The position numbers were made by a program, and so were the translations under genes. A DNA stretch of 64,000 nt. Source: Mobula hypostoma. Its lineage: Eukaryota. The notes beneath the pieces are model-generated. The model saw nothing but the letters and a program-made list of their open reading frames with translations, did no database searches and was not told the origin of the DNA. The stretch spans positions 43,650,001 to 43,714,000 of the forward strand of contig NC_086097.1 of NCBI RefSeq assembly GCF_963921235.1, in the 5' to 3' direction. This document shows, piece by piece, positions 1 through 55,513 of this stretch. The stretch's first letter is position 1. The number at the start of each line of letters is the position of its first letter.

Positions 1-2813
1 GATATGTCTTCTTTATTAGATACTTCCATTACAATGGATGAGATTAAGAATGTTATTTTTTCTATGAATCTGGGGAAAGCTCCTGGCCCTGATGGGTTTA
101 CCGTTGAATTTTATAAATGTTTTGCTTCTTTATTGATTCCTTGGCTCTATAAGGTTTTTGAGGCTTCTTTGAAACTTGGTAAACTTCCGGAATCTTTTAA
201 TAGAGCATCAATTTCTTTAATACTAAAGAAGGATAAAGACCCTGCTCAATGTGCATCTTATAGACCAATATCTTTATTAAATGTTGATTCTAAAGTTTTT
301 TCTAAGTTATTAGCAAATAGACTAGAAAAAGTACTTCCTTCTATTATTTCGGAAGACCAAACGGGTTTTATTAAAGGTCGTTACTCTTTTTATAATATTC
401 GTACATTGTTAAATATCGTTTATACTCCCTCACAAAATGTTCCTGAGTGTGTTATTTCTTTAGATGCCGAGAAAGCTTTTGATAGAGTAGAATGGCCTTA
501 TTTATTTAAGGTGCTTGAAATGTTTAATTTTAGCTTGAAATTTATATCCTGGATTAAACTGTTATATTACTCCCCTGTAGCCTCGGTTCGTACTAACTCC
601 TTAAACTCACCTTTTTTTCCTCTCTTTCGTGGTACTCGACAAGGCTGTCCTCTTAGTCCCCTATTATTTGATATTGCATTAGAACCTCTTGCAATTGCTA
701 TTCGAGAATCTTTAAATATTACTGGGATAACTCGGGGATTAAAGTCCCATAAATTATCACTCTATGCTGATGATTTACTTTTATATATTTCTAATCCTGA
801 GAGATCCATTCCTGCTGTTTTAGAGTTATTAGCACAATTTGGTCTTTTCTCAGGTTATAAATTAAATCTTAGTAAGAGTGAACTTTTTCCGATTAATAAA
901 CATCTTCCCTTATATTATAAATTTCCATTTAAATTGATTAATAATTACTTTTCATATCTTGGGATTAAAATTACTTGTAAACATAAAGATTTATTTAAGA
1001 CTAACTTTTTACCATTAATAGACCATATTACTCAACTTTCATCTAAATGGTTTCCCTTATATTTAACTTTGATTGGTCGTATTAATGCAGTTAAGATGTT
1101 TTTTTTGCCAAAATTTTTATATGTGTTTCAGGCATTACCAATTTTCGTTCCTAAATCTTTTTTTGATAAAGTTGACTCTAAAATTTCTTCATTTATTTGG
1201 CAGAACAAGAATCCGAGACTGGGTAAAATACATTTACAGAAAGCTAAGAGAGATGGAGGTTTAGCATTACCTAACTTTAGATTTTATTATTGGGCTATTA
1301 ATATTCGACATATGAAATTTTGGTTACTTGACCGGGACATACTATTTATTCCTAAATGGGTAGCATTGGAATTACAATCTGTTCAGGGTTATACACTTGG
1401 TTCTATTTTAGGTTCCTCTCTTCCTTTTGATTCGAAACGTCTTAAGCAGGTCTCTAACCCGATAGTTAAATATGCTTTGCGCATTTGGTTTCAATTCAGA
1501 AAATTTTTTGATCTTAATCAATTCGGGTTAGCGATTCCTATTTTAGGTAACATATTTTTTCCTCCCTCTTTTACGGATCGCGCTTTTCAAACTTGGAAGA
1601 CTAAGGGTATTTTACGGTTTTTGGATTTATTTTTAGATGGTTCCCTTATGTCTTTTGAACAATTATCTAATAAATATAACTTATCAAGAATACATTTTTT
1701 TAGATATTTACAAGTTAGAAATTTCCTAAGTACTATACTTACTTCCTTTCCAATGCTTCCTCCTATATATATTTTAGATTCGATAATTAACCTTAATCCA
1801 TGTCAGAAAGGTGCATCGGCTATGATTTATAATATTATTATGAAACTTAGGAAAGCTCCATTTGATAAGATTAGGGTAGATTGGGAACAGGAATTGGGGC
1901 TTACCATTTCTGTGGATGATTGGGGGCAGATTTTACAATTAGTTAATACTTCCTCTATTTGTGCTAAACATTCCCTAATTCAATTTAAAGTGGTTCATAG
2001 AGCACATATGTCCAAAGATAAGTTAGCGCGTTTTTACTCGCATATTAATCCTTTCTGTGATAGATGTTCGGGGCAGATAGCCTCTTTAACTCATATGTTT
2101 TGGTCTTGCCCTACTTTGGAAACTTTTTGGAGAGATATTTTCAATATTATTTCTAAGGTATTAAATATAGATATCTCTCCTCACCCTATTACTGCTATCT
2201 TTGGACTACCTAAAATTTCTAGTAATCTTTCCCCTTCAGCCCGTAGAATGATTGCATTTCTTACTTTAATGGCGAAAAGATGTATTTTACAACATTGGAA
2301 AGAGCTTAATGCTCCAACTACCTTTTTTTGGTTTTCTCAGACGATTTTATGTTTGAATCTGGAGAAAATTAGAAGTAACCTTTATGATTCTTCATTTAAA
2401 TTTGAACAGATTTGGGGACCTTTTATTCGATATTTTCATTTAATGTAATATTTACCCTTCTTGTTTTCTCTTCACTGTTTTAATGGAGGTCGGGATTGAG
2501 GACGTGATTTTAAGTTTAACTCTGTTTGGTTTCAAGTTAGCCCATTGCTTTGCTTTGCTTTTAGTTAGTTGCACGGTGGGTTTTTTTTTTTGGGGTTTTT
2601 TTTTCTTTTTTTCCATTGATATATATAAAATCTAGTATACTATTATGTTATCTTGGTTTCTTATGCTTAAATTACATTGTTTGTAGTATTTTCTTTTTGG
2701 TATTGTTATCTTTTGGAATTTTATTATACTTTAACATTGTATTAATGTTTATATGGCTTACCTTTTTTGTATACTTACTCAATAAAAAGATTTAAAAAGA
2801 AAGAAAGAAAAAA
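1..2813 (+). mobile_element. L1-like LINE, 3' portion including 3'UTR and A-rich tail; antisense to the host gene
   Basis: ORF2 is followed by a T-rich 3'UTR (T tracts 2581-2612), AATAAA at 2781 and the tail aaaaagaaagaaagaaaaaa. Confidence 0.88.
4..2448 (+). CDS. L1-clade LINE ORF2 (reverse transcriptase plus C-terminal Cys/His motif), truncated by the window start
   Basis: 814-aa uninterrupted ORF with non-LTR RT motifs KAPGPDGF, YRPISLLN, SLDAEKAFDRV, GTRQGCPLSPLLF and LYADD, plus C-terminal CDRC..LTHMFWSC as in L1/Tx1 ORF2. Confidence 0.93.
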   Translation: MSSLLDTSITMDEIKNVIFSMNLGKAPGPDGFTVEFYKCFASLLIPWLYKVFEASLKLGKLPESFNRASISLILKKDKDPAQCASYRPISLLNVDSKVFSKLLANRLEKVLPSIISEDQTGFIKGRYSFYNIRTLLNIVYTPSQNVPECVISLDAEKAFDRVEWPYLFKVLEMFNFSLKFISWIKLLYYSPVASVRTNSLNSPFFPLFRGTRQGCPLSPLLFDIALEPLAIAIRESLNITGITRGLKSHKLSLYADDLLLYISNPERSIPAVLELLAQFGLFSGYKLNLSKSELFPINKHLPLYYKFPFKLINNYFSYLGIKITCKHKDLFKTNFLPLIDHITQLSSKWFPLYLTLIGRINAVKMFFLPKFLYVFQALPIFVPKSFFDKVDSKISSFIWQNKNPRLGKIHLQKAKRDGGLALPNFRFYYWAINIRHMKFWLLDRDILFIPKWVALELQSVQGYTLGSILGSSLPFDSKRLKQVSNPIVKYALRIWFQFRKFFDLNQFGLAIPILGNIFFPPSFTDRAFQTWKTKGILRFLDLFLDGSLMSFEQLSNKYNLSRIHFFRYLQVRNFLSTILTSFPMLPPIYILDSIINLNPCQKGASAMIYNIIMKLRKAPFDKIRVDWEQELGLTISVDDWGQILQLVNTSSICAKHSLIQFKVVHRAHMSKDKLARFYSHINPFCDRCSGQIASLTHMFWSCPTLETFWRDIFNIISKVLNIDISPHPITAIFGLPKISSNLSPSARRMIAFLTLMAKRCILQHWKELNAPTTFFWFSQTILCLNLEKIRSNLYDSSFKFEQIWGPFIRYFHLM

Positions 2814-9805: not shown

Positions 9806-10379
9806 AAACACAAAATACTCTGCAGATGCTGGGGCAACACTCACAACATGCTGGAGGAACTCAGCAGGTCGGGCAGCATCTGTGGAAATGATCAGTCAAC
9901 ATTTCGGGCCGGAACCCTTTGTCAGGACTGAAGAGGGAAGGGGCAGAGGCCCTATAAAGAAGGTGGGGGGAAGGTGGGAAGAAGGCTGGTAGGTTCCAGG
10001 TGAAAAACCGGTAAGGGGAAAGATCAAGAGGTGGGGGAGGGGATAGGCAGGAAAGGTCAAGAAGGAATAGGGGAAAACACAATGGGTAGTAGGAGGCGGA
10101 ACCATGAGGGAGGTGATAGGCAGCTGTGGGAGGGGGCAGAGTGAAATAGGGATAGGGGAAGGGAGGGGGAGGGAATTACTGGAAGTTGGAGAATCCTATG
10201 TTCATACCAAGGGGCTGGAGACTACCTGGACGGTATATGAGGTGTTGCTCCTCCAACCAGAGTTTAGCCTCATCATGGCAGTAGAGGAGGCCATGTATGG
10301 GCATATCCAAATGGGAATGTGATCTCCCCCTCCTTTCCGTTATCCCTATTTCACTCTGCCCCCTCCCCCAGCTGCCCAT
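9806..10379 (-). mobile_element. Penelope-like element 3' fragment (second subfamily) with an inverted terminal segment and a CpG-decayed hammerhead
   Basis: Minus-strand ORF ..DMPIHGLLYCHDEAKLWLEEQHLIYRPGSLQPLGMNIGFSNFQ matches the C-terminus of the 788-aa ORF. About 10324-10379 is an inverted copy of about 10117-10170. Confidence 0.85.
9893..9930 (-). ncRNA. Degenerate minimal type I hammerhead ribozyme
   Basis: CAGTC CTGACAA A GGGT TCCG GCCC GAAATGTT GACTG: stems I and II intact; core changes are CpG-type transitions. Confidence 0.65.
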
Positions 10380-28965: not shown

Positions 28966-29150
28966 AAACAACAGGAATTCTGCAGATGCTGGAAATTCAA
29001 GCAACACACATAAACAACAGGAATTCTGCAGATGCTGGAAATTCAAGCAACATATATCAAAGTTGCTGGTGAACGCAGCAGGCCAAGCAGCATCTACAGG
29101 AAGAGGCGCAGTCGACGTTTCAGGCCGAGACCCTTCGTCAGGACTAACTG
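28966..29150 (-). mobile_element. About 185-bp Penelope-tail insertion with an intact hammerhead and a tandemly duplicated 46-bp terminus
   Basis: Near-identical to 49347-49485. 28966-29011 is repeated at 29012-29057. Flanking TSD cctac/ttggtga (28954-28964 and 29153-29163, 10/11). Confidence 0.9.
29110..29145 (-). ncRNA. Minimal type I hammerhead ribozyme
   Basis: AGTC CTGACGA A GGGT CTCG GCCT GAAAC GTC^GACT; identical to 49445-49480. Confidence 0.82.
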
Positions 29151-39907: not shown

Positions 39908-39998
39908 CAAACAAGAGAAAATCTGCAGATGCTTGAAATCCAAGCAACGCTCAGAAAATGCTGCCTGGCCTGCTGAGTTCCTCCAGCATTGTGTGCGC
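39908..39998 (-). mobile_element. 91-bp Penelope-tail insertion with internal inversion
   Basis: Perfect 15-bp TSD gatgcacttagttag (39893-39907 and 39999-40013); the two halves of the tail are in opposite orientations. Confidence 0.85.
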
Positions 39999-41066: not shown

Positions 41067-43712
41067 CATAGAAAACATAGAACATAGAAAGCCTACAGCA
41101 TAATACAGGCCCATTGGCTCACAAAGTTGGGCCGAAATTACCTTAGAAATTAGGGTTACCCATAGCCCTCTATTTTTCTAAGCTCCTTGTACCTATCCAA
41201 AAGTCTCTTAAAAGACCCTATCATATCTGCCTCCACCACACGCATTCACCATTCTCTGCATTAAAAAAAAACTTACCCCTGACATCTCCTCTGTACCTGC
41301 TCCCAAGCACCTTAAACCTGTGCCCTCTTGTGGCAGCCATTTCAGCCCTGGAAAAAAGCCTCTGACAATCCACACGATCAATGCCCCTCATCATCTTATA
41401 CACCTCTATCAGGTCACCTCTCATCCTCCGTCGCTCCAAGGAGAAAAGGCCGAGTTCACTCAACCCGCCTTCATAACGCACGCTCGCCAATCTAGGCAAC
41501 ATCGTTGTAAATCTCCTCTGCACTCTTCCTACAGTTTCCACATCCTTCCTGTAGTGAGGTGACCAGAACTAAGTACAGTACTCCAAGTTGGGGTCTGACC
41601 AGGGTCCTATATAGCTACAACATTACCTCTCGGTTCCTAAATTCAATTCCACAATTGATGAAGGCCAATGCACCGTATGCCTTCTTAACCACAGAGTCAA
41701 CCTGTGCAGCTGTTTTGAGCATCCTATGGACTCGGATCCCAAGATCCCTCTGATCCTCCACACTGCCAAGAGTCTCATCATGACAAAGCTATGCTGACTA
41801 TTCCAAATGTTCATAAATCCTGCCTCTCAGGATCTTCTCCATCAACTTAACAACCACTGAAGTAAGACTCACTGGTCTATAATTTCCTGGGCTACCTCTA
41901 CTCCCTTTCTTGATTAAGGGAACAACATCTACAACCCTCCAATCCTCTGGAACCTCTCCCGTCCCCATTGATGATCATTGCCAGAGGCTCAGCAATCTCC
42001 TCCCTTGCCTCCCACAGTCGCCTGGGGTACATCTCATCCGGTCCCGGCGACTTATCCAACTTGATGCTTTCCAAAAGCTCCAGCACATCCTCTTTCTTAA
42101 CATCTACATGCTCAAGCTTTTCAGTCCGCTGCAAGTCATTACCACAATCACCAAGATCCTTTTCTTAATGAATACTGAAGTAAAGTATTCATTAAGTAAC
42201 TCTGCTATTTCCTCCGGTTCCATACACACCTTCCGACTGTCACACTTGATAGGTCCTATTCTTTCACGTCTCATCCTCTTGCTCTTCACATACTTGTAGA
42301 ATGCCTCGGGGTTTTCCTTAATCCTGCCTGCCAAGGCCTTCTCATGACCTTCTGGCTCTCCTAATTTCCTTCTTAAGCTCCTTCCTGTTAGCCTTGTAAT
42401 CTTCTAGATCTCTAACATTACCTAGCTCTCTGAACCTTTCGCAAGTTTTTCTTTTCTTCTTGACTAGATTTACTACAGCCTGTGTACACCACGGTTCCTG
42501 TACCCTACCATAACTTCCCTGTCTCACTGGAACATACCTATGCAGAATTCCACACAAATATCCCCTGAACATTTGCAACATTCCTTCTGTACCTTTCCCT
42601 GAGAACATCTGTTCCCAATTTAAGTTTCCACATTCCTGTCTGATAGCCTCATAATTCCCCTTACTCCAATTAAACGCTTTTCTAACTTGTCTGTTCCTAT
42701 CTCTCTCCAATGCTATTGTAAAGGAGATAGTGATCATAATTCTATCCCCAAAATGCTCTCCCACTGAGAGATATGACACCTGACCAGGTTCATTTGCCAA
42801 TACCAAATCAAGTACAGCCTCTTCTCTTGTGGGCTTATCTACATATTGTGTCAAGCAATCTTCCTTAACACACCTAACAAACTCCACCCCATCTAAGCCC
42901 CTCGCTCTAGGGAGATGCCAATTGATATTTGGGAAATTAAAAACTCCCACCACGACAACTGTTATTATTACACCTATCCAGGATCTGTTTCCTTATCTGC
43001 TCCTTGATATCCCTGTTACTATTGGGCGGCCTATAAAAAACACCCAGTAGAGTTATTGACCCCTTCCTGTTCCTAACCTCCACCCACAGAGACTCCGTAG
43101 ACAATCCATGACGTCCAACTTTTCTGCAACCGTGACACTATCTCTGATCAACAGTGCCACGCCCCCACCTTTTTTGCCTCCCTCCCTATCCTTTCTGAAA
43201 CATCTAAAACCTGGCACTTGAAGTAACCATTCCTGTCCCTGAGCCATCCAAGTCTCTGTAATGGCCACATCATAGCTCCAAGTATTGATCCACTCTCTAA
43301 GCTCATCCGCTTTGTTCACAATACTTCTTGCGTTAAAATAGACACAACTCAAATTGTCAGTCTGAGCGCATCCTTTCTCTATCACCTGCCTATCTGCCCT
43401 CACGCACCGTTTCCAAGCTTTCTCTATTTGTGAGCCAACTGCTTCTTCCCCAGTCTCTTCAGTTCGGTTCCCACCCAACAATTCTAGTTTAAGCTCTCCC
43501 CAGTAGCCTTAGCAAACCTCCCCGTAATGATATTGGTCCCCTGGGATTCAAGTGCAACCCGTCCTTTTTGTACTTGTCACACCTGCCCCAAAAGAGGTCC
43601 CAATGATCCAGAAATCTGAATCCCTGCCCCCTGCTCCAATCTCTCACCCACACATTTATCCTCCACCTCATTCTATTCCTGCACTCACTGTCACGTGGCA
43701 CAGGCAGTAATC
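41067..43712 (-). mobile_element. CR1 LINE with ORF1 esterase remnant, APE endonuclease and partial RT (internally deleted)
   Basis: GFRFLDHWDLFWGR..KKDGLHLN (SGNH/GDSL-like ORF1); YFNARSIVNK, AITETW, GGGVALLIR (APE); KSPGPDEMYPR; (ttctatg)n tail at about 41067-41090. Confidence 0.9.
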
Positions 43713-45555
43713 TGAATATTGCTCAGGGTCTTGACTAAAAATGTGTTTCCTTACATGACCTATATTCTTCTTTTTTTCCCTTTCCCGTTATTTTGAACAC
43801 TTGTGTATGTTTTTGCCCTTTGGCCCCAGAGAAATGTTGTATCATTCTGCTGTATCCATGTATGGATTGAATGGCAAACTTGATTTGATTTAATTTCCAT
43901 GGACTATTGCAGGGTGGTGATGCTATGATCCTTAAGTGATCATCTCCTGTTTATTTTTACATTTGACTCATACAGCCTCATTGGATGATCCCAAAAATAT
44001 CCTAGGACCACTGTAATGTTTTCCTTAATCAAAAATGGAACTCTGCCTCCCCTCTCCCCTGCCTCTATTACACCTGCAACATTTATATTTTGGAACACTG
44101 AGCTGCCAGTCCAGCCCCTTTCTGAACTATGTTTCTGTTATAGCTATAACATCACAGCTTTATGTATCAATCCATGCCCCAGATTTCTATGCCTTACCTA
44201 TCAGGGTTCTTACAGTGTAGTTCATCAGACCTTTCCCATTTCCAGTCTTTCCTCCACCTATCTTGTCTACTGATCTTTCTCACTTTTACATTTATAGTTG
44301 TCTCAATTTTCCTATTTGCAACACTGCAGGTTTGGATCTCAAAGCAGTAACATGTTTCCTGCCAACCAACTTTCAATCAATGCCAGTCTATCATATCAAT
44401 CCCTTGTGCTTTAAAATTTTCGGACTCACATGGGACAACATAGGCATTCTGAAAATTTAAATAGACTACACTGGCTTTTCCCTCATCTATTCAACCAGTT
44501 AGGCCTCAACCATTTCTAACACACGTTAAAGATATGTACAAAGCAGCAAATAGTATTATGGCCAAATCTGGTAATGATAACAAGTTGCAAGGAAGGCACA
44601 ATGAACTTGCAGAAGGGATATAGACAGTTAAGTGTGCTAATTTGAAGATGATAGCATTATTCTTACCACAACAATGCATTTGGGATTCTGGCAAATTAGG
44701 GAAATCAGTTCTTTCTTTTTAAAAGAATGGGATTAAGAATTGAGAGAACACTGAAAAACAGGGTAAATTTGAATTCAGTGCAGTCATATGGGACAAAGGA
44801 AGAGAAAAATCTAAAAAATTAAATTTTTATATTATTAATAATCTGAAGACTACATACTTTAAACTACTCATATCCTTTATAATTCAATTAATAAACAGAT
44901 GCAATGTCATGAGAGGTTTATGAGTTTTGCAAAGCTTATGAAGCAGTATTAATCAGATTGAAAAGTAATGATCATCATCTCCCTCTTGTAGCAAATTTCT
45001 GACCAATTTAATTGTTAAAGAGTTTGCAAAACATACTGTGGTTAACTGAGTGGGTGAGAAAGAATCAAATAGCATATTAAATGAAGTACGAGGTTCTTTA
45101 CTTTGGTTGGAAGATAATCAAAATAAAATTTTCAAGTGGTTAAAACCATCAAATGTTGCTATAGATTTTTAGTATGCTGGCATATAAAATTCTTAATACA
45201 TGGTCAGCAATTTAAGACTGACAAGAAAACAAATAGTGAATTGTTTTCAAAATGTCAGTGCAGTTTCATCATTTCCTGCATCAGGAACATAATACTGTCA
45301 TGTTCAGAGGACCAAATGAACAGGAAACACATCTAACTTTTAAAGAAAAAACTACTTGAAGGTAACAAGTGAATTATATCTCAGCAGGTCTAACAGACTA
45401 CAGCTTTTCGTACCCTTCATGTATTGGAAACACCAGATGGAAAATATGATATAGAGAAAAATAGAAAATACAAGGAAAAATAATAAACACAGGACTACCC
45501 ATGGATGTCAAAGATCATAAACTTTGAATAGTTGAATATCAATTCTATACGGTAC

Positions 45556-45666
45556 CTGTAGATGAGGCCACGCAGCCTCCAATGTTGGTTCATCCTCTTC
45601 AGGATCAAACTCTGCACCTGTGGGGTTTGATGAAGGTGGTAATGTCCGAAACATGTTCACTGCAAA
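45556..45666 (-). CDS. PPP2R5C: PP2A B56-gamma exon, 111 nt: [37 protein letters not shown]
   Basis: ttcag| acceptor and CAG|gtaccg donor; FAVNMFR is gamma-type (delta has FSVNLFR). Confidence 0.97.
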
Positions 45667-46833: not shown

Positions 46834-49444
46834 AACATCTTTTGGTAATTGTTTGAATAAATGCACTGCAGCACATTTTTTAAACTTGGACCACTAATAC
46901 CCAACTTTCAGGAGATACATGTTCACGGACATCATTACATTTATGAAAATCAGCTAAATTTTCGTCAACAAAATGTGATTAAAAGTGGATCAAAATGAAT
47001 TATACCATTTTAATTTACAGCACATTATTTTTTTTCTTTGTAATGCCAAAATAACCACCACTCAAACAAAAACCTCTTTGCTCAGTCTCTTTATTACTCA
47101 ATTCAAACTGAAGCCGCTGTTGAAGGCTGGACAGGAGAACAACAAATGAGGTAGATTATACTTGCATTTCTTTCTTATGTATTATGACAAATGCTGACAA
47201 AACTGAATTGTTAAATTAAAATCTGCCTTTGCCTTGAGATTGGAGCCAAAATTTTACATCATAGAAAACTTACAACACAGGTGACATCAATTCAGCCCAT
47301 TCTGTCAATGCTGGGGTTGGGGGGAAGGGAGGAAATAATCATTATTCTAACTAAAATCTCACAATTAACTCAGACTTGGCAATATGTAGGAGTACAAGAG
47401 ACTACAGAAAAAAAAGAGGGCTATACAGTAGGGAGATTCTAGGCAGTTTCTAGAGTAGGGTACATGGTCGGCATAACAATATGGGCTGAAGGACCTGTAA
47501 TGTGCTGTAGATTTCTATGTTTCTAGAGTCAAAACTGACAGGAATTTTATGTGAAAGGAGACAACAATGTGATCACATTTAACAATTCACTAGTTTATTT
47601 CCCTTCTAACCCCTTCCCTCAGGAGGTTTTTTTAAAAAAATCAGTTATGACATATTTTTAAATGTTATTTCTTATAACTGACAATAGCTTAATAATCATG
47701 TGGGTTGTAGCCTGAGGAGTAGGGCGGGGGATCATGAAAAACTTTATTCCATCACACAGGTGAAGAGCATCTTTACAAATGAAATCAGTTGCTCAGGATT
47801 GTCCGAGTACACATGATCTGATCTCATCTTGGCTCATCTCTCTTGGGGTTCATCAACATCCTTTATAATCTTCAGTCAGTAAACTAAATTATGGAGGATG
47901 CAGTGATAGCATAGGCTTAATCTCTTTGCTTGGATGTACTACTATCAATGATAAGCAACTTTACTGAAATATTCCAGAAATTCTGAAGGTGGCTTGATTA
48001 CCACAGATGTAGTTGGCATATCAATTACAATTTTACTGGTAGATTGTTAGGAACTTCTGGAGATGTGCTCTAACCCATGAGCTTCTCCCAAAGTTATCAC
48101 AAGCAACCAGGAGGAACTCCCACTGAAATTATAACAACACCTCAAGACAAGACCAAAATTTATTTTTCAGAAGCATGGTAATTTTTAAACAGTCAAAAAA
48201 CTTTTGTTCAGTTAAGAGCAGTGAATTGTTTGATGTGGCAATATATCCAACATAATAAAAGTTTACAACATAATCTACTGGATCAGCAATACAAAAACAA
48301 TTTATACCAATCTGAGTCAAGAGACCTCATTCTTTGCATAAACACAATGAACAAAATGTTAAACAGAATAGTCTGGTTTAAGTAAGTTTGTCTTAAAACT
48401 AAAAATTGTGGGTAAGTTATGGTAAACAAAACTATGAAGCAAATTTTAATAATGTGACTAACTACTGCCAAATGAACACAATAATTCTAGTATCAGTAGT
48501 ATGTATGCATTCTTTGAAGATTGAGATGAAAGAGTATAACGTCAAAAAGGCATTTTTACAAATTAAAAAGAAACCTAGATGGCTAATGCATTTAAGTTTC
48601 TTTCCAATTGAACCAAAATCCCATATACTTGATTTAACATTGGATGCATTTTCATGTAGTCCCTCAATCATTTTGTATAATGTGTTACTTGTTTTATTAC
48701 CTGCTTGTTAAAAACAAAATGCATTTTAGTTCCTAAGCATTTTGTAACTATTCCATTTCTTATGGGGTTGAATATGAAGTCCTAATTACCTTCCATCATT
48801 TACCAGTCATATTTCACTTTTTCCACTATTTATTAAAGGATTCTATGATCAGGAATATACTACATTAGTTTCTTATTTTAAGCAAGCAAACGCCGGTTTC
48901 ATTCTTTCACAACCCAGGTGTTACAAATCCTTTGGCTAGTACTTTTACACATGGCTTTAGCAGGAAATGGAACACCTCGTTCCTGTTGTTTCCTATCATA
49001 CCTACACCCTTACACCCTTTCATGCCAGAAAAACACTCCTGACATACAAAACAGCAATTCACATGGACTTTCTCCAATCGAGTATAACATGCTCAATCTT
49101 CAAAGCAATCTGCTCTATATTAGGAAGTCCAAATGTAGACTAAGTGATTACTTCAATAAACAGCAGCATTACCTGCAAGGGTGATAAGAAAGACTCAGTA
49201 ATTATTTTCATTTTTACTACCCATTTTTGGTACTTTTGGAGTATGTTTCAAAACTATTTGAATGGTCACCAATTTTATATTTCTGCTCCCTGAAATAGAT
49301 TACACCCATAGTATTGACATGGGTACAATCTATCTGAGGGGACAGAAAACAACAGGAATTCTGCAGATGCTGGAAATTCAAGCAACACACATCAAAGTTG
49401 CTGGTGAACGCAGCAGGCCAAGCAGCATCTATAGGAAGAGGCGC

Positions 49445-49480
49445 AGTCGACGTTTCAGGCCGAGACCCTTCGTCAGGACT
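49445..49480 (-). ncRNA. Minimal type I hammerhead ribozyme; predicted cut after GUC, between 49449 and 49448
   Basis: Stem I AGTC/GACT, core CUGACGA, stem II GGGU/GCCU with a CUCG loop, GAAA, and a loopless palindromic stem III ACGU. Confidence 0.85.
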
Positions 49481-49769
49481 AACTGAAGGAAGAGTGAGTA
49501 AGGGATTTGAAAGCTGGAGGGGGAGGGGGAGATGCAAAATGATAGGAGAAGACAGGAGGGGGAGGGATAGAGCCGAGAGCTGGACAGGTGATAGGCAAAA
49601 GGGGATACGAGAGGATCATGGGACAGGAGGTCCGGGAAGAAGGGGGGGGGGTGACCCAGAGGATGGGCAAGAGGTATATTCAGAGGGACAGAGGGAGAAA
49701 AAGGAGAGTGAGAGAAAGAATGTGTGCATAAAAATGAGTAACAGATGGGGTACGAGGGGGAGGTGGGGC

Positions 49770-52136
49770 CTAGCGGAAGTTAGAGAAGTCAATGTTCATG
49801 CCATCAGGTTGGAGGCTACCCATACGGAATATAAGGTGTTGTTCCTCCAACCTGAGTGTGGCTTCATCTTTACAGTAGAGGAGGCCGTGGATAGACATGT
49901 CAGAATGGGAATGGGATGTGGAATTAAAATGTGTGGCCACTGGGAGATCCTGCTTTCTCTGGCGGACAGAGCGTAGATGTTCAGCAAAGCGGTCTCCCAG
50001 TCTGCGTCGGGTCTCACCAATATATAAAAGGCCACATCGGGAGCACCGGACGCAGTATATCACCCCAGTCGACTCACAGGTGAAGTGATGCCTCACCTGG
50101 AAGGACTGTTTGGGGCCCTGAATGGTGGTAAGGGAGGAAGTGTAAGGGCATGTGTAGCACTTGTTCCGCTTACACGGATAAGTGCCAGGAGGGAGATCAG
50201 TGGGGAGGGATGGGGGGGACGAATGGACAAGGGAGTTGTGTAGGGAGCGATCCCTGCGGAATGCAGAGAGAGGGGGGGAGGGAAAGATGTGCTTAGTGGT
50301 GGGATCCCGTTGGAGGTGGCGGAAGTTACGGAGAATAATATGTTGGACCCGGAGGCTGGTGGGGTGGTAGGTGAGGACCAGGGGAACCCTATTCCTCGTG
50401 GGGTGGTGGGAGGATGGAGTGAGAGCAGATGTACGTGAAATGGGGGAGATGCGTTTAAGAGCAGAGTTGATAGTGGAGGAAGGGAAGCCCCTTTCTTTAA
50501 AAAATGAAGACATCTCCCTCGTCCTAGAATGAAAAGCCTCATCCTGACAGCAGATGCGGCGGAGACGGAGGAATTGCGAGAAGGGGATGGCGTTTCTGCA
50601 AGAGACAGGGTGAGTAGAGGAATAGTCCAGATAGCTGTGAGAGTCAGTAGGCTTATAGTAGACATCAGTGGATAAGCTGTCTCCAGAGACAGAGACAGAA
50701 AGATCTAGAAAGGGGAGGGAGGTGTCGGAAATGGACCAGGTAAACTTGAGGGCAGGGTGAAAGTTGGAGGCAAAGTTAATAAAGTCAACGAGTTCTGCAT
50801 GCGTGCAGGAAGCAGCGCCAATGCAGTCGTCGATGTAGTGAAGGAAAAGTGGGGGACAGATACCAGAATAGGCACGGAACATAGATTGTTCCACAAACCC
50901 AACAAAAAGGCAGGCATAGCTGGGACCCATACGGGTGCCCATAGCTACACCTTTAGTTTGGAGGAAATGGGAGGAGCAAAAGGAGAAATTATTAAGAGTA
51001 AGGACTAATTCCGCTAGATGGAGCAGAGTGGTGGTAGAGGGGAACTGATTAGGTCTGGAATCCAAAAAGAAGCGTAGAGCTTTGAGACCTTCCTGATGGG
51101 GGATGGAAGTATATAAGGACTGGACATCCATGGTGAAAATAAAGCGGTGGGGGCCAGGGAACTTAAAATCATCGAAAAGTTTAAGAGCGTGAGAAGTGTC
51201 ACGGACATAGGTCGGAAGGGATTGAACAAGGGGTGATAAAACAGTGTCGAGGTATGCAGAAACGAGTTCGGTGGGGCAGGAGCAAGCTGAGACAATAGGT
51301 CTGCCAGGACAGGCAGGTTTGTGGATCTTGGGTAGGAGGTAGAAACGGGAAGTGCGGGGTGTGGGAACTATAAGGTTGGTAGCAGTGGATGGGAGATCCC
51401 CTGAGCGGATAAAGTCGTTGATAGTGTGGGAGACAATGGCCTGGTGCTCCTTAGTGGGGTCACGATCGAGGGGTAAATAAGAGGAGGTATCCGCGAGTTG
51501 TCGCTGTGCCTCGGCAAGGTAGAGGTCAGTACGCCAGACTACAACAGCACCCCCTTTATCAGTGGGTTTAATAATAATGTTAGGATTAGTGCGGAGGGAG
51601 TGGAGAGCAGAGCGTTCCGAAGGAGTGAGGTTGGAATGGGGACAAGGTGCGGTGAAGTCGAGACGGTTGATGTCCAGTCGGCAGTTGGCAATAAAGAGAT
51701 CCAGAGCAGGCAGAAGACCAGAGCGGGGTGTCCATGAAGAAGAGGAGGGTCGAAGACGGGAGAAGGGGTCATCGGTGGGGGTGGAAGGGTCCTTGCCGAA
51801 GAAGTAGGCTCGGAGACGGAGACGGCGGAAGAAAAGTTCCGCATCGTGGCGAACACGGAACTCGCTGTGGTGTGGGCGAAGGGGGACAAACGTGAGGCCC
51901 TTACTGAGAACAGAGCGTTCTGCCTCCGACAGTTGAAGGTCGGAGGGGATGGTAAAGACCCGGCACGGATGAGAGCTGGGATCAGAGGGGGGAGGGGGGA
52001 GGCTGGGGGTGTCAGTGGAGAGGGGAGGGTTGGGGTGAGAGAAAGATGGAGCCTCTGAGGGCCCAGGAGCTGACGGTGGGATCTGAGGAAGACGGGGCTG
52101 CGGAGTGGTGGTGGGGGAAGGGGAGACGGGAGTCAC
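49770..52136 (-). CDS. Penelope-like reverse transcriptase plus GIY-YIG endonuclease
   Basis: IIKPTDKGGAVVV, FYLLPKIHK..PGRPIVS, MDVQSLYTSIP, GVAMGTRMGPSYA, YIDD, LPFLD; Cys linker CKRNKCYTC; VIYCVRCSRCGLLYIGET..RFAEH. The ORF starts at GTG with an in-frame stop just upstream, so the true start is uncertain. Confidence 0.93.
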   Translation of the reverse strand: MTPVSPSPTTTPQPRLPQIPPSAPGPSEAPSFSHPNPPLSTDTPSLPPPPSDPSSHPCRVFTIPSDLQLSEAERSVLSKGLTFVPLRPHHSEFRVRHDAELFFRRLRLRAYFFGKDPSTPTDDPFSRLRPSSSSWTPRSGLLPALDLFIANCRLDINRLDFTAPCPHSNLTPSERSALHSLRTNPNIIIKPTDKGGAVVVWRTDLYLAEAQRQLADTSSYLPLDRDPTKEHQAIVSHTINDFIRSGDLPSTATNLIVPTPRTSRFYLLPKIHKPACPGRPIVSACSCPTELVSAYLDTVLSPLVQSLPTYVRDTSHALKLFDDFKFPGPHRFIFTMDVQSLYTSIPHQEGLKALRFFLDSRPNQFPSTTTLLHLAELVLTLNNFSFCSSHFLQTKGVAMGTRMGPSYACLFVGFVEQSMFRAYSGICPPLFLHYIDDCIGAASCTHAELVDFINFASNFHPALKFTWSISDTSLPFLDLSVSVSGDSLSTDVYYKPTDSHSYLDYSSTHPVSCRNAIPFSQFLRLRRICCQDEAFHSRTREMSSFFKERGFPSSTINSALKRISPISRTSALTPSSHHPTRNRVPLVLTYHPTSLRVQHIILRNFRHLQRDPTTKHIFPSPPLSAFRRDRSLHNSLVHSSPPSLPTDLPPGTYPCKRNKCYTCPYTSSLTTIQGPKQSFQVRHHFTCESTGVIYCVRCSRCGLLYIGETRRRLGDRFAEHLRSVRQRKQDLPVATHFNSTSHSHSDMSIHGLLYCKDEATLRLEEQHLIFRMGSLQPDGMNIDFSNFR

Positions 52137-52289
52137 AACAGCAGCACATCAAGACCCGGCCTGGTGTTCAAGGCTGGAGTTGCAGTTGGTGGTTGCGTAA
52201 TCACTTCGAATGTGTCCATGGTCGTTGCTGGAGTCCGGGTTTTGAATATGTCCTGAGGTGTTGGAGGGGACAGAAGTAGGGTAGTGCTT

Positions 52290-53405
52290 GGTTCCAAAGG
52301 ACTGGAAAAATATAAATTTCACTCCACTCTTTAACGAAGGAAGACAGAAGAAAGGAAATTATAGGCCAGTCAGCCTGACTTCAGTGGTTTGGGAGATGTT
52401 GGGAGTCCCTTATTAAGGATGAGGTTTCAGAATCTTGGGAGGCACATGTAAAATATGACAAAATCATCATAGTTTCAAGGAGAATCTAGCCTAACAAATC
52501 CACTGGAATTCCTTGAGGAAATAACAAGCAGGATAGGCAAAGGAGAGTCAGTGGGTGTTGTTCATGGGAATTTTCAGAGGCCTTTCAAGGTGCCACACGA
52601 TAAGATCCCACGGTATTACAGGAAATATACTAGCATAGATAGAAGATTGGCTGACTGGCAGGAGGCAAAGAGGTGGAATAATGGGGGGCTTTTCTGGTGG
52701 GCCGCTGGTGACTAATGGTGTTCCACAGGGGTCTATTTTGAGACTGCTTCTTCTCATGTTATATGCCATTGTGATGACCTTGTGACCAAGTTTGCGGACG
52801 ATGTGGAAACAAGTGAAGGGTCAGGCAGTGTTCAGAAAGCAGGGATTCTGAAGGATGGAGGTTGGTAGAATAGCAAAAAAGCGTCAGGTGAAATACAGTG
52901 TATGGCCATGCACTGTGGTAGAAAGAATAAAAGTGTAGACCATTTTCTAATTTGGGAGAAAATTCAAAATTGAGGTACAAAGGGACTTGGGAGTCCTCAT
53001 GCAGGATTCTGTGAAGGATGATTTGCAAGCTGAGTTGGTGGTAAGAAAGGCAAATGCAATGCTAGCATTCATTTTGGGAGGACTAGAAATATAAAAGCAA
53101 TAATGTAATGCTAAGGCTTCATAAGGCATCAGTCATACCCCACTTGGAGTACTGTCAGTAGCTGTGGACCCCTTTATCTGAGGAAAGATGTACCCTCTCC
53201 AATGCCAGCATAAGGGAGGTTCATGAGAATTATTCTGGGAATGAACGGGTTAATAGCTCAGTCAGTGTCCATATTTACTTGAGTTTAGAAGAATGAAAGG
53301 GGATCTCAGTGAAACCTATCAAATGTTAAAAGGCCTAGATAGAGAGGATGTGGAGAGAATATTTCCCTATTGTGGGTGAATCTTGGATCAGAGGACACAG
53401 CCTCA
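52290..53405 (+). mobile_element. Degenerate CR1 RT fragment
   Basis: aattataggccagtcagcctgacttcagtgg (NYRPVSLTS), ggtgttccacagggg (GVPQG) and aagtttgcggacgat (KFADD). Confidence 0.82.
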
Positions 53406-54620
53406 GAACAGTGATAGGTGAAGCCAGGTAGGTAGGAAGGGTAAAGGGCTGGAGAGGAAGGAATCTGTTAGGAGAAGACAGTGGACCATAGGAGAAAGGG
53501 AAAGACGAGGGGCACTAGGGAGGCTATGGACTGGCACATCAGAACGGGAACTGGAATCTGAATTAAAATGTTTGACCACTGGGAAATTCCATTTTTGGCA
53601 GATGGAGCGGAGGTGCTCAATGAAGCGGTCCCCCAAATTACATTGGGAGCACTGGACGCAATAGATGACCCCAGCAGATTCACAGGTGAGGTGCTGCCTC
53701 ATCTGGAAGGACTGTTTGCGGCCCTGAACAGGGGTGAGAGATGAAGCCAATGGGCAGGTATAGCATTTTGGCTGCTTGCAGGGATTAAGTGCTCGGAGGG
53801 AGATTAGTGGGGAGGGACGAATAGACAAGGGACTTATGGAGGGAATGATCCCTGCAGAAAGCAGAGAGATGGGGACAGGTAAAGATATGCTTGGTAGTAG
53901 GATCCCTTTGGAGATGGCAGAACTGTGGAGAATAATGTGTTGGATGCAGAGGCTCAAAGGTTAGTAGGCAAGGACAAGAACAACTAAACAACAGGAATTC
54001 TGCAGATGCTGGAAATTCAAGCAACATACATCAAAGTTGCTGGTGAACGCAGCAGGCCAAGCAGCATCTATAGGAAACGTCGACTGCGCCCCTTCCTATA
54101 GATGCTGCTTGGCCTGCTGCGTTCACCAGCAACTTTGATGTATGTTACAAGAACAACTATTTCTGTTAAGGGAGCAGGAAGATGGAATAAGGATGGATGT
54201 TCAGGAAATGGAACAGATACGGGTGAGGATAGCAACAATGATGGTGGAAGGGAAACCCTGGTCTTAGAAGGACAACATCTCTGATGTCCTGGAAAAGAAA
54301 GCTTCATCCTGGGAACAAGATGGTGGAGACAAAGGAATTGAAAAAGGGGAATTGCATTTTTACAGGAGACAGGGTGGAAAGAGGTAAAGTTAAGATAGCT
54401 GTGAGAATCTGTAGGTTTATAGAAGATGCTGGTCAACAGTTTATCTCCAAAGATGGAAACAGAAAGATCAAGAAAGGGGATGGGAGGTGTCAGAAATGGA
54501 CCAAGTGAATTTAAAGGACAGGTGAAAGTTGGAGGCAAAGTTAATGAAATTGACAAGCTCAGCACAGGTACATGAAGCAGCACCAATGCTGTCGTCAACT
54601 TAGTGGTGGTGTTGGGGATC
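53406..54620 (-). mobile_element. Older Penelope-like fragment interrupted by a younger PLE-tail insertion
   Basis: PFLDLSVSI..YKPTDSHSYL, CKQPKCYTC and AGVIYCVQCSQC, frameshifted. Confidence 0.88.
53987..54146. mobile_element. 160-bp Penelope-tail insertion containing a perfect 54-bp inverted repeat
   Basis: 13-bp TSD acaagaacaacta (53974-53986 and 54147-54159); arms 54023-54076 and 54093-54146 with a 16-nt spacer. Confidence 0.92.

Positions 54621-55270: not shown

Positions 55271-55513
<243 letters not shown>

Follow-up and report, generated by a model that had tools for sequence, protein, structure and literature searches.

A 5'-truncated Penelope-like element of probable Neptune type within an intron of a PP2A-B56 gene in Mobula hypostoma

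The window analyzed in this study is a 64,000-nucleotide stretch of the Mobula hypostoma genome (NC_086097.1, positions 43,650,001 to 43,714,000 of the forward strand), and all positions given below refer to it. A Penelope-like element (PLE) was found sense-oriented within an intron of a PP2A-B56 (phosphatase-subunit) gene. The element, its parts, the neighbouring host exons and two related insertions are as follows.

55298-55497, minus strand: PP2A B56-family exon of the host gene, on the upstream side of the element (limits approximate, from splice dinucleotides)
53987-54146, no strand assigned: 160-bp sibling insertion, sitting inside an older PLE copy, with a 13-bp duplication at 53974-53986 and 54147-54159
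52264-52275, no strand assigned: target-site duplication (TSD), copy at the 5' junction of the element
49348-52263, minus strand: 5'-truncated Penelope-like element (Neptune-like), 2916 bp
52152-52263, minus strand: 37 codons of repeat-rich linker, in the same frame as the ORF and ending at the truncation point
52149-52151, minus strand: in-frame TGA closing the 5' side of the frame
49773-52148, minus strand: open stretch of 792 codons lacking a start codon, with a Pro-rich linker followed by reverse transcriptase (RT), thumb, Cys linker and GIY-YIG nuclease
49477-49769, minus strand: pyrimidine-rich 3' untranslated stretch, from stop codon to hammerhead core
49444-49481, minus strand: minimal type I hammerhead, predicted cut after 49449
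49348-49383, minus strand: 36-nt terminal tail, lying between the two positions (49348 and 49384) at which reverse transcription probably starts
49336-49347, no strand assigned: TSD, 12-bp copy at the 3' end of the element
45556-45666, minus strand: PP2A B56-family exon of the host gene, on the downstream side of the element (limits approximate)
28967-29150, minus strand: sibling insertion with whole hammerhead, tail and tandem extra tail

The limits of the element and its perfect 12-bp TSD, both proposed in a first-pass annotation of the sequence, hold on the minus strand. The two TSD copies (GAGGGGACAGAA) match exactly, and no third copy occurs in the 64-kb window. The chance of such a duplication is about 1e-7 at fixed ends and 4e-5 when 20x20 offsets are allowed. 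TSD lengths at four insertions in the window are 12, 13, 9 and 15 bp, variable as in EN+ PLEs, and none of the four is a (TA)n microsatellite. A (TA)n target preference has been reported for some Neptunes; it is an optional trait of that group and not a defining one.

The open frame extends from 52148 to 49773, and counts 792 codons from stop to stop instead of the 788 first given. The RT, linker and GIY-YIG nuclease claimed for it were all located, with YIDD at codons 438-441 and D341, CKRNKCYTC at 659-667, VIY at 696 and YIG at 709. The Cys linker reads CX4CX2C-X23-C (C659, C664, C667 and C691), and the nuclease possesses CCHH (C699, C702, H740 and H746) together with R720, H724, E769 and N785 at the catalytic positions. 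Upstream of the RT core, GLTF at 84 and DKGG at 197 represent the GxKF/Y and DKG motifs, named here after Fig. S2 of Craig et al. (PMC8557442); the GLTF position reads GLNF or GLKF in relatives. The traits of EN+ PLEs are present, namely a single ORF in which RT is followed by GIY-YIG, and two Cys between GIY and YIG. Pfam finds RVT_1 at E 3.9e-5 and GIY-YIG at E 8.1e-4, each scoring below its curated cut-off, and a sequence search of PDB with the element protein returned no match. A fold search against PDB with the predicted protein model (pLDDT 82) placed three telomerase RTs on top (E about 1e-9) and R2 at rank 4 (E 3.6e-9), with TM-scores of 0.25-0.37 and only a narrow lead of telomerase over R2. 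Judged from this model, the RT of the element is related to telomerase RT, its predicted fold being narrowly closest to telomerase. The PLE identity proposed at first is supported by the RT with C-terminal GIY-YIG, the linker and the telomerase-like predicted fold.

The frame had also been described as uninterrupted, which is incorrect. An in-frame TGA lies at 52151-52149, where two stingray relatives carry Ser, and 37 further codons separate it from the 5' junction. In these relatives the same frame stays open across the TGA position and then continues about 200 residues farther upstream. A second open frame lies at the 5' end, and a frameshift from it was discounted, since the stingray relatives use the ORF's own frame. 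The 5' truncation, the missing upstream pseudo-LTR and the missing ATG start noted before were borne out: the copy lacks the 5' repeat, the N-terminal domain and about 200 N-terminal codons, and no ATG of the frame precedes Met340, which is inside the RT. The related loci did not yield a definable upstream repeat either. Without a 5' repeat and its N-terminal codons, with an in-frame TGA and with its first ATG within the RT, this copy is incapable of moving itself. No full-length copy of the family was seen; a master of full length would offer a candidate enzyme for biochemical work on PLEs. A TGA common to the family and recoded, by read-through or as selenocysteine as in some Naiads, would be no lesion, and we give this reading hardly any credence. 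Selenoprotein PLEs exist (PMC8557442), and among the differences to other copies listed, none near 100% falls at 52149-52151, though neighbouring positions appear. However, both stingray relatives spanning the position (2/2) carry Ser and not Cys, the site is in a non-conserved disordered linker (pLDDT about 30 adjacent), and a SECIS-like pattern was not found in the 3' region.

Compared by eye with a published alignment, this Penelope-like element likely belongs to the Neptune group. The Cys linker had been taken as the mark of Neptune, but it is given for both Neptune and Nematis (PMC8557442), and Naiad has one too. The Neptune-like placement stands through the 23-residue linker spacer and the PxGxN nuclease end, which favour Neptune over Nematis. 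This contrast was read by eye from the rows of four Neptunes and three Nematis and does not correspond to any published definition. Craig et al. (PMC8557442) recover Neptune itself as paraphyletic. As in Neptune1_Nv, Neptune-1_Ac and DrerioNep1 (PMC8557442, Figs S1-S2), GIY-YIG with CCHH is C-terminal. The CX2-5CxxC linker with a long spacer (23 residues, against some 25-28 in the four Neptune rows compared), the PxGxN nuclease end (PDGMN in the element), TMDVxSLY and PxYA in the RT and the hammerhead near the 3' end are further likenesses. Nearest by eye is the sea-anemone Neptune1_Nv, with PPG before the linker and CxxC inside GIY-YIG. Unlike Neptune, the element carries ahead of the RT a long linker of Pro-rich and tandem-repeat sequence, which was found in no relatives other than those of sharks and rays, and has no (TA)n target at its site; this copy is also without 5' repeat and N-terminal domain. 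Nematis shares the Cys linker and C-terminal nuclease, but in the three shown the spacer after CxxC is about 5-7 residues and PxGxN is absent, and the 23-residue spacer and PDGMN end speak against membership. Penelope and Poseidon were rejected as they have no Cys linker before GIY-YIG, and Naiad and Chlamys as their nuclease is N-terminal (with DKA in Naiads), whereas the element combines a C-terminal nuclease with DKG. Hydra was rejected as well, with no CCHH, DKT and a CxCX5C linker there, against CCHH and DKG in the element.

A total of 1132 protein relatives were found among 8000 candidates scored. Those with names that score best come from sharks and rays and are 66-77% alike (shark ones about 70% identical), and full-length invertebrate-type relatives of 880-950 aa are about 50% alike. 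The Cys linker is present in 102 of the 109 relatives reaching the nuclease, with a spacer of 20-26 aa. In a quick tree of 32 of 121 proteins, which holds no named clade references, the sequences from sharks and rays group together (SH-aLRT 100); the tree leaves room for horizontal transfer from marine invertebrates without pointing to it. A metagenome scan with the single protein gave 127 stretches, and no relative was among them. Summed contig depth, which is not copy number, rises from 9 in the unique flank to 9.3 million at the element's 3' end and declines from there to 0.26 million at its 5' end. The family is very abundant and common to at least three species, with shark and ray relatives. 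In the openly accessible literature searched, no dedicated description of this shark-and-ray PLE family was found, and the copy is a clean example of it. The element is real but ordinary, every part of it having been described for PLEs already.

The hammerhead is composed of helix I, the CUGACGA core, an extra A, a 4-bp helix II, GAAA and a palindromic ACGU replacing helix III. Its core starts at 49476, 294 nt past the stop codon, and the predicted cut site is 101 nt from the 3' end, in agreement with the distances of about 290 and 100 nt estimated at first. The loose pattern by itself does not exceed chance (5 matches in the window, 2.6 expected), and Rfam reports no hammerhead in the whole window or in a 461-nt focus; the call rests on conservation and covariation. 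A hammerhead in the terminal repeat region is a further trait of EN+ PLEs that the element shares. From 80 loci fetched, 29 include the 500 nt that follow the ORF; the core occurs there in sense orientation in 14 of them and in antisense orientation in one, with 0.2 expected, and a strict descriptor recovers 6/29 as against the 14/29 of the core pattern. In an alignment selected on the core pattern, with rows related to each other, 90.8% of cells are paired and 24 double changes occur (0/500 shuffles). The predicted fold probability as a monomer is 0.001; the hammerhead is predicted to be inactive on its own, and would need a second copy or the protein.

The minimal type I hammerheads described from metazoan PLEs (Cervera and de la Pena 2014, PMC4209133) likewise have a short helix I, an extra base after the core, a G-C closing helix II, palindromic 15.2-16.2 and no helix III, but helix II is 7-8 bp in the schistosome motifs and 4 bp here. 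In the green anole Poseidon PAc (Frangieh et al. 2024, PMC11167929) a hammerhead is also found about 100 nt before the 3' end; Poseidon has no Cys linker, and the PAc ORF begins inside the hammerhead. Non-LTR retrozymes (10.64898/2026.07.22.740005) carry a type I hammerhead derived from PLE repeats as well. They are non-coding tandem repeats, whereas the hammerhead of the element is single and stands behind an RT-nuclease frame, and no retrozyme tandem array was found at any copy in the window. The 3' end of the element is fixed and common to many copies, with 311, 251 and 57 loose contig ends starting at 49347 in three runs; the contigs revealed no site at which molecule ends pile up.

Two tiny insertions (29013 and 53987) are 97-99% alike to the element and belong to its subfamily, the other small insertions being 74-88% alike. 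The 160-bp sibling consists of a tail-bearing arm (89/90 alike) and an inverted, tail-less arm (71/73 alike), which end at positions matching 49348 and 49384. An inverted arm with a one-sided 36-nt tail is the textbook PLE layout. Rfam microRNA matches at 54044-54123 are these inverted arms, below the gathering score, and were discarded. The other sibling is 135/138 alike to the element over 29013-29150, its extra tail of 45 nt (28967-29011) is identical, and no duplication of at least 7 bp was found around 28967-29150. Fixed internal RT start sites, a 30-40 nt tail and extension of both strands are described for PAc (PMC11167929) and match the 160-bp sibling, which suggests that the two-start-site, two-strand mechanism of Poseidon also holds for a Neptune-like element.

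The first-pass annotation proposed that the family had supplied the enzymes for these tiny insertions, which this copy cannot have done, and implied that they were separate passengers. Truncated copies are the simpler account, and the two are most simply heavily truncated siblings from the element's own RNA. A separate non-autonomous family, SINE- or retrozyme-like and moved in trans by the family's enzyme, is in our view improbable. It would accord with the origin of animal retrozymes from PLE repeats (10.64898/2026.07.22.740005), with the start of copy 29013-29150 right at helix I, and with the depth, which roughly halves from the last 180 bp to the next bin (9.3 to 4.1 million) and suggests that very short copies are abundant. 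Yet each of the four short copies begins at a different 5' end and none contains sequence foreign to the element, only 1-3 places distinguish the two young ones from the long copy, and neither a tandem of two hammerheads nor a promoter is present. A gradient of 5' truncation suffices for short copies with differing 5' ends.

We consider it highly probable that 49348-52263 is a 5'-truncated, likely dead-on-arrival PLE copy, likely of Neptune type and likely target-primed into the PP2A-B56 intron. By analogy with PLE biochemistry (PMC11167929), an RT-nuclease protein from a full-length master elsewhere would have nicked the two strands 12 bp apart. Reverse transcription would then have begun at a fixed internal position of the RNA, 101 nt beyond the hammerhead cut site on its downstream side, passed through the uncut hammerhead and halted after 2.9 kb. 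The two tiny insertions likely reflect the same process ending after 90-140 nt, in one of them likely with priming on each strand, at two start sites that lie 36 nt from one another. Synthesis from a circular RNA, made by cleavage at two hammerhead repeats and ligation and copied across the ligated site, is a route proposed for PLEs and retrozymes (PMC4209133) that we regard as unlikely here. A ligated circle would account for an intact hammerhead within the insertion just as uncut RNA does, and the tandem extra tail at 28967-29011 is a possible more-than-unit product. In the only purified PLE system, however, hammerhead mutants inserted normally and the main template was uncut RNA (PMC11167929); the low monomer fold probability also speaks against a circle, and 49348-52263 shows no second repeat or junction to the element's 5' part.

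The age of the insertion was approached through a related species, organism B, whose flanks are 1.8% diverged from the window. A contig of organism B matches up to 49335 and continues with 102 letters unlike the element, the empty-site joint not being among the matches listed. Organism B likely lacks the insertion, which likely postdates the split from this relative; a flank difference of 1.8% may equal millions of years in rays. Presence or absence of the insertion is usable as a marker between related rays. The many retained CpGs noted at first were verified, with 106 sites in the element and an o/e of 0.61, against 0.31 in the remainder of the window and 0.21 in two older PLE copies of the same kind. 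This contrast and the likely absence in organism B make the copy look young. At 9 places or more, at least 98% of other copies differ from it, and its private divergence is bounded between 9 and 99 places. Of the claim of a recently active family, the relative youth of the insertion is supported; the family is not simply young, given its presence in a third species, its shark relatives and the older PLE copies 72-80% alike in the same window.

An old and extinct family, the clean look of the copy being due to slow mutation in rays, seems rather unlikely to us, though it deserves some weight. Contigs 90-95% alike outnumber those at least 99% alike in all four runs, organism C carries the family at similar likeness and spread, and in a second sample of organism A the left junction is filled, though only 16 letters into the element. 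Against it stand the CpG contrast, the likely absence from organism B, the perfect duplication and the 83,212 of 342,462 aligned contigs that are at least 99% alike (short contigs, right flank included). As for the host, a still-mobile ray Neptune family, abundant enough for identical minimal hammerheads to lie in sense in one pre-mRNA, pair as active dimers, cut host transcripts and regulate genes genome-wide and polymorphically, is very improbable. Two sense hammerheads, at 49476 and 29141, lie in this same PP2A-B56 gene.

A Penelope-like element (PLE) copy lies on the minus strand and carries a long open frame.

49348-52263, minus strand: PLE copy with a 12-bp duplication on both sides
52148-49773, minus strand: open frame of 792 codons (translation)

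The exact 12-bp duplication described in the first-pass annotation is present: the 12-mer at 49336-49347 has one other identical copy in the window, at 52264-52275, with a chance of ~1e-7 at fixed ends from base composition. The target strands would have been nicked 12 bp apart. The reported uninterrupted frame of 788 codons stands as a long open frame, but an in-frame TGA, previously unreported, closes it upstream, and 37 further codons reach the 5' junction. The reverse transcriptase (RT) motifs D341 and YIDD (438-441), the CX4CX2C linker (659-667), and downstream a GIY-YIG domain containing VIY, CxxC, YIG and the residues R, H, E and N were located, in line with the RT (YIDD), Cys-rich linker and GIY-YIG nuclease claimed before; Pfam matches of the frame are weak and below curated cut-offs. 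No Met occurs in the frame upstream of residue 340, in agreement with the lack of an ATG start noted before.

A total of 1132 relatives of the element protein were found among 8000 candidates scored. Among the best 120, the closest named relatives are shark and ray proteins with 66-77% identity, and the remainder are ~42-56% identical, the named ones being from corals, echinoderms and molluscs. Full-length relatives are 880-950 residues long and include a helical N-terminal domain, which is missing from this copy. In two stingray proteins the alignment (79-80%) passes over the 5' junction without a change of frame and has Ser at the TGA position, and one of them extends ~200 residues upstream via tandem repeats to the N-terminal domain; the host is thus likely a ray, and the copy was cut inside a linker. 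In stingray relatives (P0123 and P0124), three tandem repeats of ~32 residues each separate the N-terminal domain from the RT; invertebrate relatives lack these repeats. An AlphaFold model (pLDDT 82, 19 sequences) has telomerase RTs as best fold matches and R2 as a close second. Five shark and ray rows cluster with SH-aLRT 100 in a quick tree of 32 proteins built without named references. The best 120 relatives, most of them unnamed, include no bony-fish or amphibian names, which is only a lead for an old horizontal transfer. Next after sharks and rays in this set come marine invertebrates with at most 54% identity.

The Cys linker had been taken as a Neptune mark. It is present, also in 102 of 109 relatives reaching the nuclease (85 with identical spacing), but it marks Neptune and Nematis alike according to Craig et al. 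2021 (PMC8557442). In Fig. S2 of that paper, Neptunes show a long spacer after CxxC and a PxGxN end, whereas Nematis show ~5-7 residues and no such end. The element has a 23-residue spacer and a PDGMN end, sharing both features with Neptune and differing in both from Nematis; Neptune1_Nv is the nearest row as judged by eye. This placement is a motif comparison as opposed to a phylogeny.

The hammerhead core begins at 49476, 294 nt past the stop codon, and the predicted cut lies 101 nt from the element's end, close to the ~290 and ~100 nt first estimated. Rfam did not detect this hammerhead, and a loose pattern gave no excess over chance within the window. Among 80 related loci, 29 contain at least 300 nt past the ORF end; 14 of these 29 have a sense core 94-139 nt downstream of it and one has an antisense core, against 0.2 expected; six of the 29 match a stricter descriptor. 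The motif covaries: in 15 aligned motifs, whose rows are related, 90.8% of cells are paired and each of the four pairs in helix I has double changes (0 of 500 shuffles as high), although two of the five measures did not exceed shuffles. Only a palindromic ACGU is left of helix III. This is the minimal form described by Cervera and de la Pena, which showed no monomer cleavage in their test (PMC4209133). The hammerhead fold has a probability of 0.001 in the monomer ensemble. The RT would have read through an uncut hammerhead.

Other PLE-derived sequences are found in the window.

29013-29150: same-subfamily insertion, 135/138 alike, with the whole hammerhead and a tandem 45-nt tail
53987-54146: same-subfamily insertion of 160 bp with two arms and a 13-bp duplication
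9195, 9815, 24353, 39908, 63346: older or weaker matches
53403-54605 and 9819-10364, minus strand: older decayed PLE copies of related subfamilies, 72-78% alike, CpG o/e 0.21

One arm of the 160-bp insertion derives from the element's 3' end and the inverted arm begins 36 nt further in, with an identical variant base in both. The inverted arm reaches at least 5 bases beyond the cut site, so the template was uncut or re-ligated. The layout of this insertion is that of the inverted copies bearing a 30-40 bp tail on one side in Craig et al. (PMC8557442), and would be accounted for by the two RT start sites with extension on both strands reported for the anole Poseidon (PMC11167929). Two RT start sites may likewise have been used here, with reverse transcription primed internally on the element RNA. 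The simplest reading is that the tiny insertions are extreme truncations of the element's own RNA, with the enzyme coming from a full-length master elsewhere. Of the tiny insertions for which this family had been proposed as the enzyme source, only those at 29013 and 53987 belong to its subfamily. The 160-bp young insertion interrupts the older copy 53403-54605. A second two-armed mini insertion, of an older subfamily, lies at 39908-39998 with a 15-bp duplication.

A total of 342,462 of the 29.4 million contigs in four runs from organisms A, B and C matched the stretch, repeated right flank included. In organism A, summed contig depth, which differs from copy number, is 9 over the unique left flank; along the element it drops steadily from 9.3 million at the 3' end to 0.26 million at the 5' end. 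These counts and this profile show a very abundant family in which most copies are 5'-truncated. In three runs, loose contig ends (311, 251 and 57) cluster at 49347, and therefore the 3' end is common to many copies. Organisms B and C carry the family at similar likeness. At the locus itself, an organism A flank contig extends 22 letters into the element, and a second organism A sample has a filled left junction supported by 16 letters only. The orthologous organism B contig differs by 17 substitutions and three gaps in ~935 letters (1.8%); it matches up to 49335, one base before the duplication, and its next 102 letters do not match the element. As to the empty-site check proposed earlier, the place where this match ends fits an empty site, and the element is probably absent from organism B.

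At least nine element positions differ from at least 98% of other copies and 99 differ in at least one fifth of them, which gives a private divergence of ~0.3% to 3%. CpGs are retained (o/e 0.61 vs 0.21 in the two older PLE copies), and compared with neighbouring copies this one is young, as had been proposed.

The whale shark genome is known to contain PLEs (PMC8455134), and the sole chondrichthyan sampled in a study of retrozymes has them (10.64898/2026.07.22.740005); the main text of a mobulid genome preprint, as far as accessible, mentions neither (10.64898/2026.10.27.761883). No dedicated description of this family was found in the literature outside Repbase, Dfam and subscription journals. 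The element belongs to an already known kind of PLE and is new as a member.

PP2A B56 family matches come from five of 222 frames scanned, all on the minus strand, and the element sits between two consecutive exons, in sense to the gene. On its right it is flanked by a decayed LINE fragment, which contains an NYRPVSLTS motif and which we take to be CR1-like.

16618-55513, minus strand: host gene, PP2A B56 family, five exon-bearing frames
1-2445, plus strand: open frame of 815 codons truncated at the window edge, with RVT_1 (E 4e-39) and zf-RVT matches; probably a young LINE of L1 type, on the strand opposite to the host gene
43056-43722, minus strand: Exo_endo_phos and GDSL-like fragments (domain matches); 5' part of a LINE, likely CR1/L2
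11295-11489, plus strand: Spin-doc zinc finger fragment (domain match); likely a decayed DNA transposon

Oriented by the tail-bearing arm, eight of nine PLE-derived loci (9195, 9815, 24353, 28967, 39908, 49348, 53403 and 53987; exception 63346) have the same orientation as the host gene (two-sided binomial ~0.04, calculated by hand for this one gene). An A directly precedes the terminal AAC at all five 3' junctions (49347, 53986, 28966, 24352 and 39909), which may reflect either a match of one base or a preferred nicking site.
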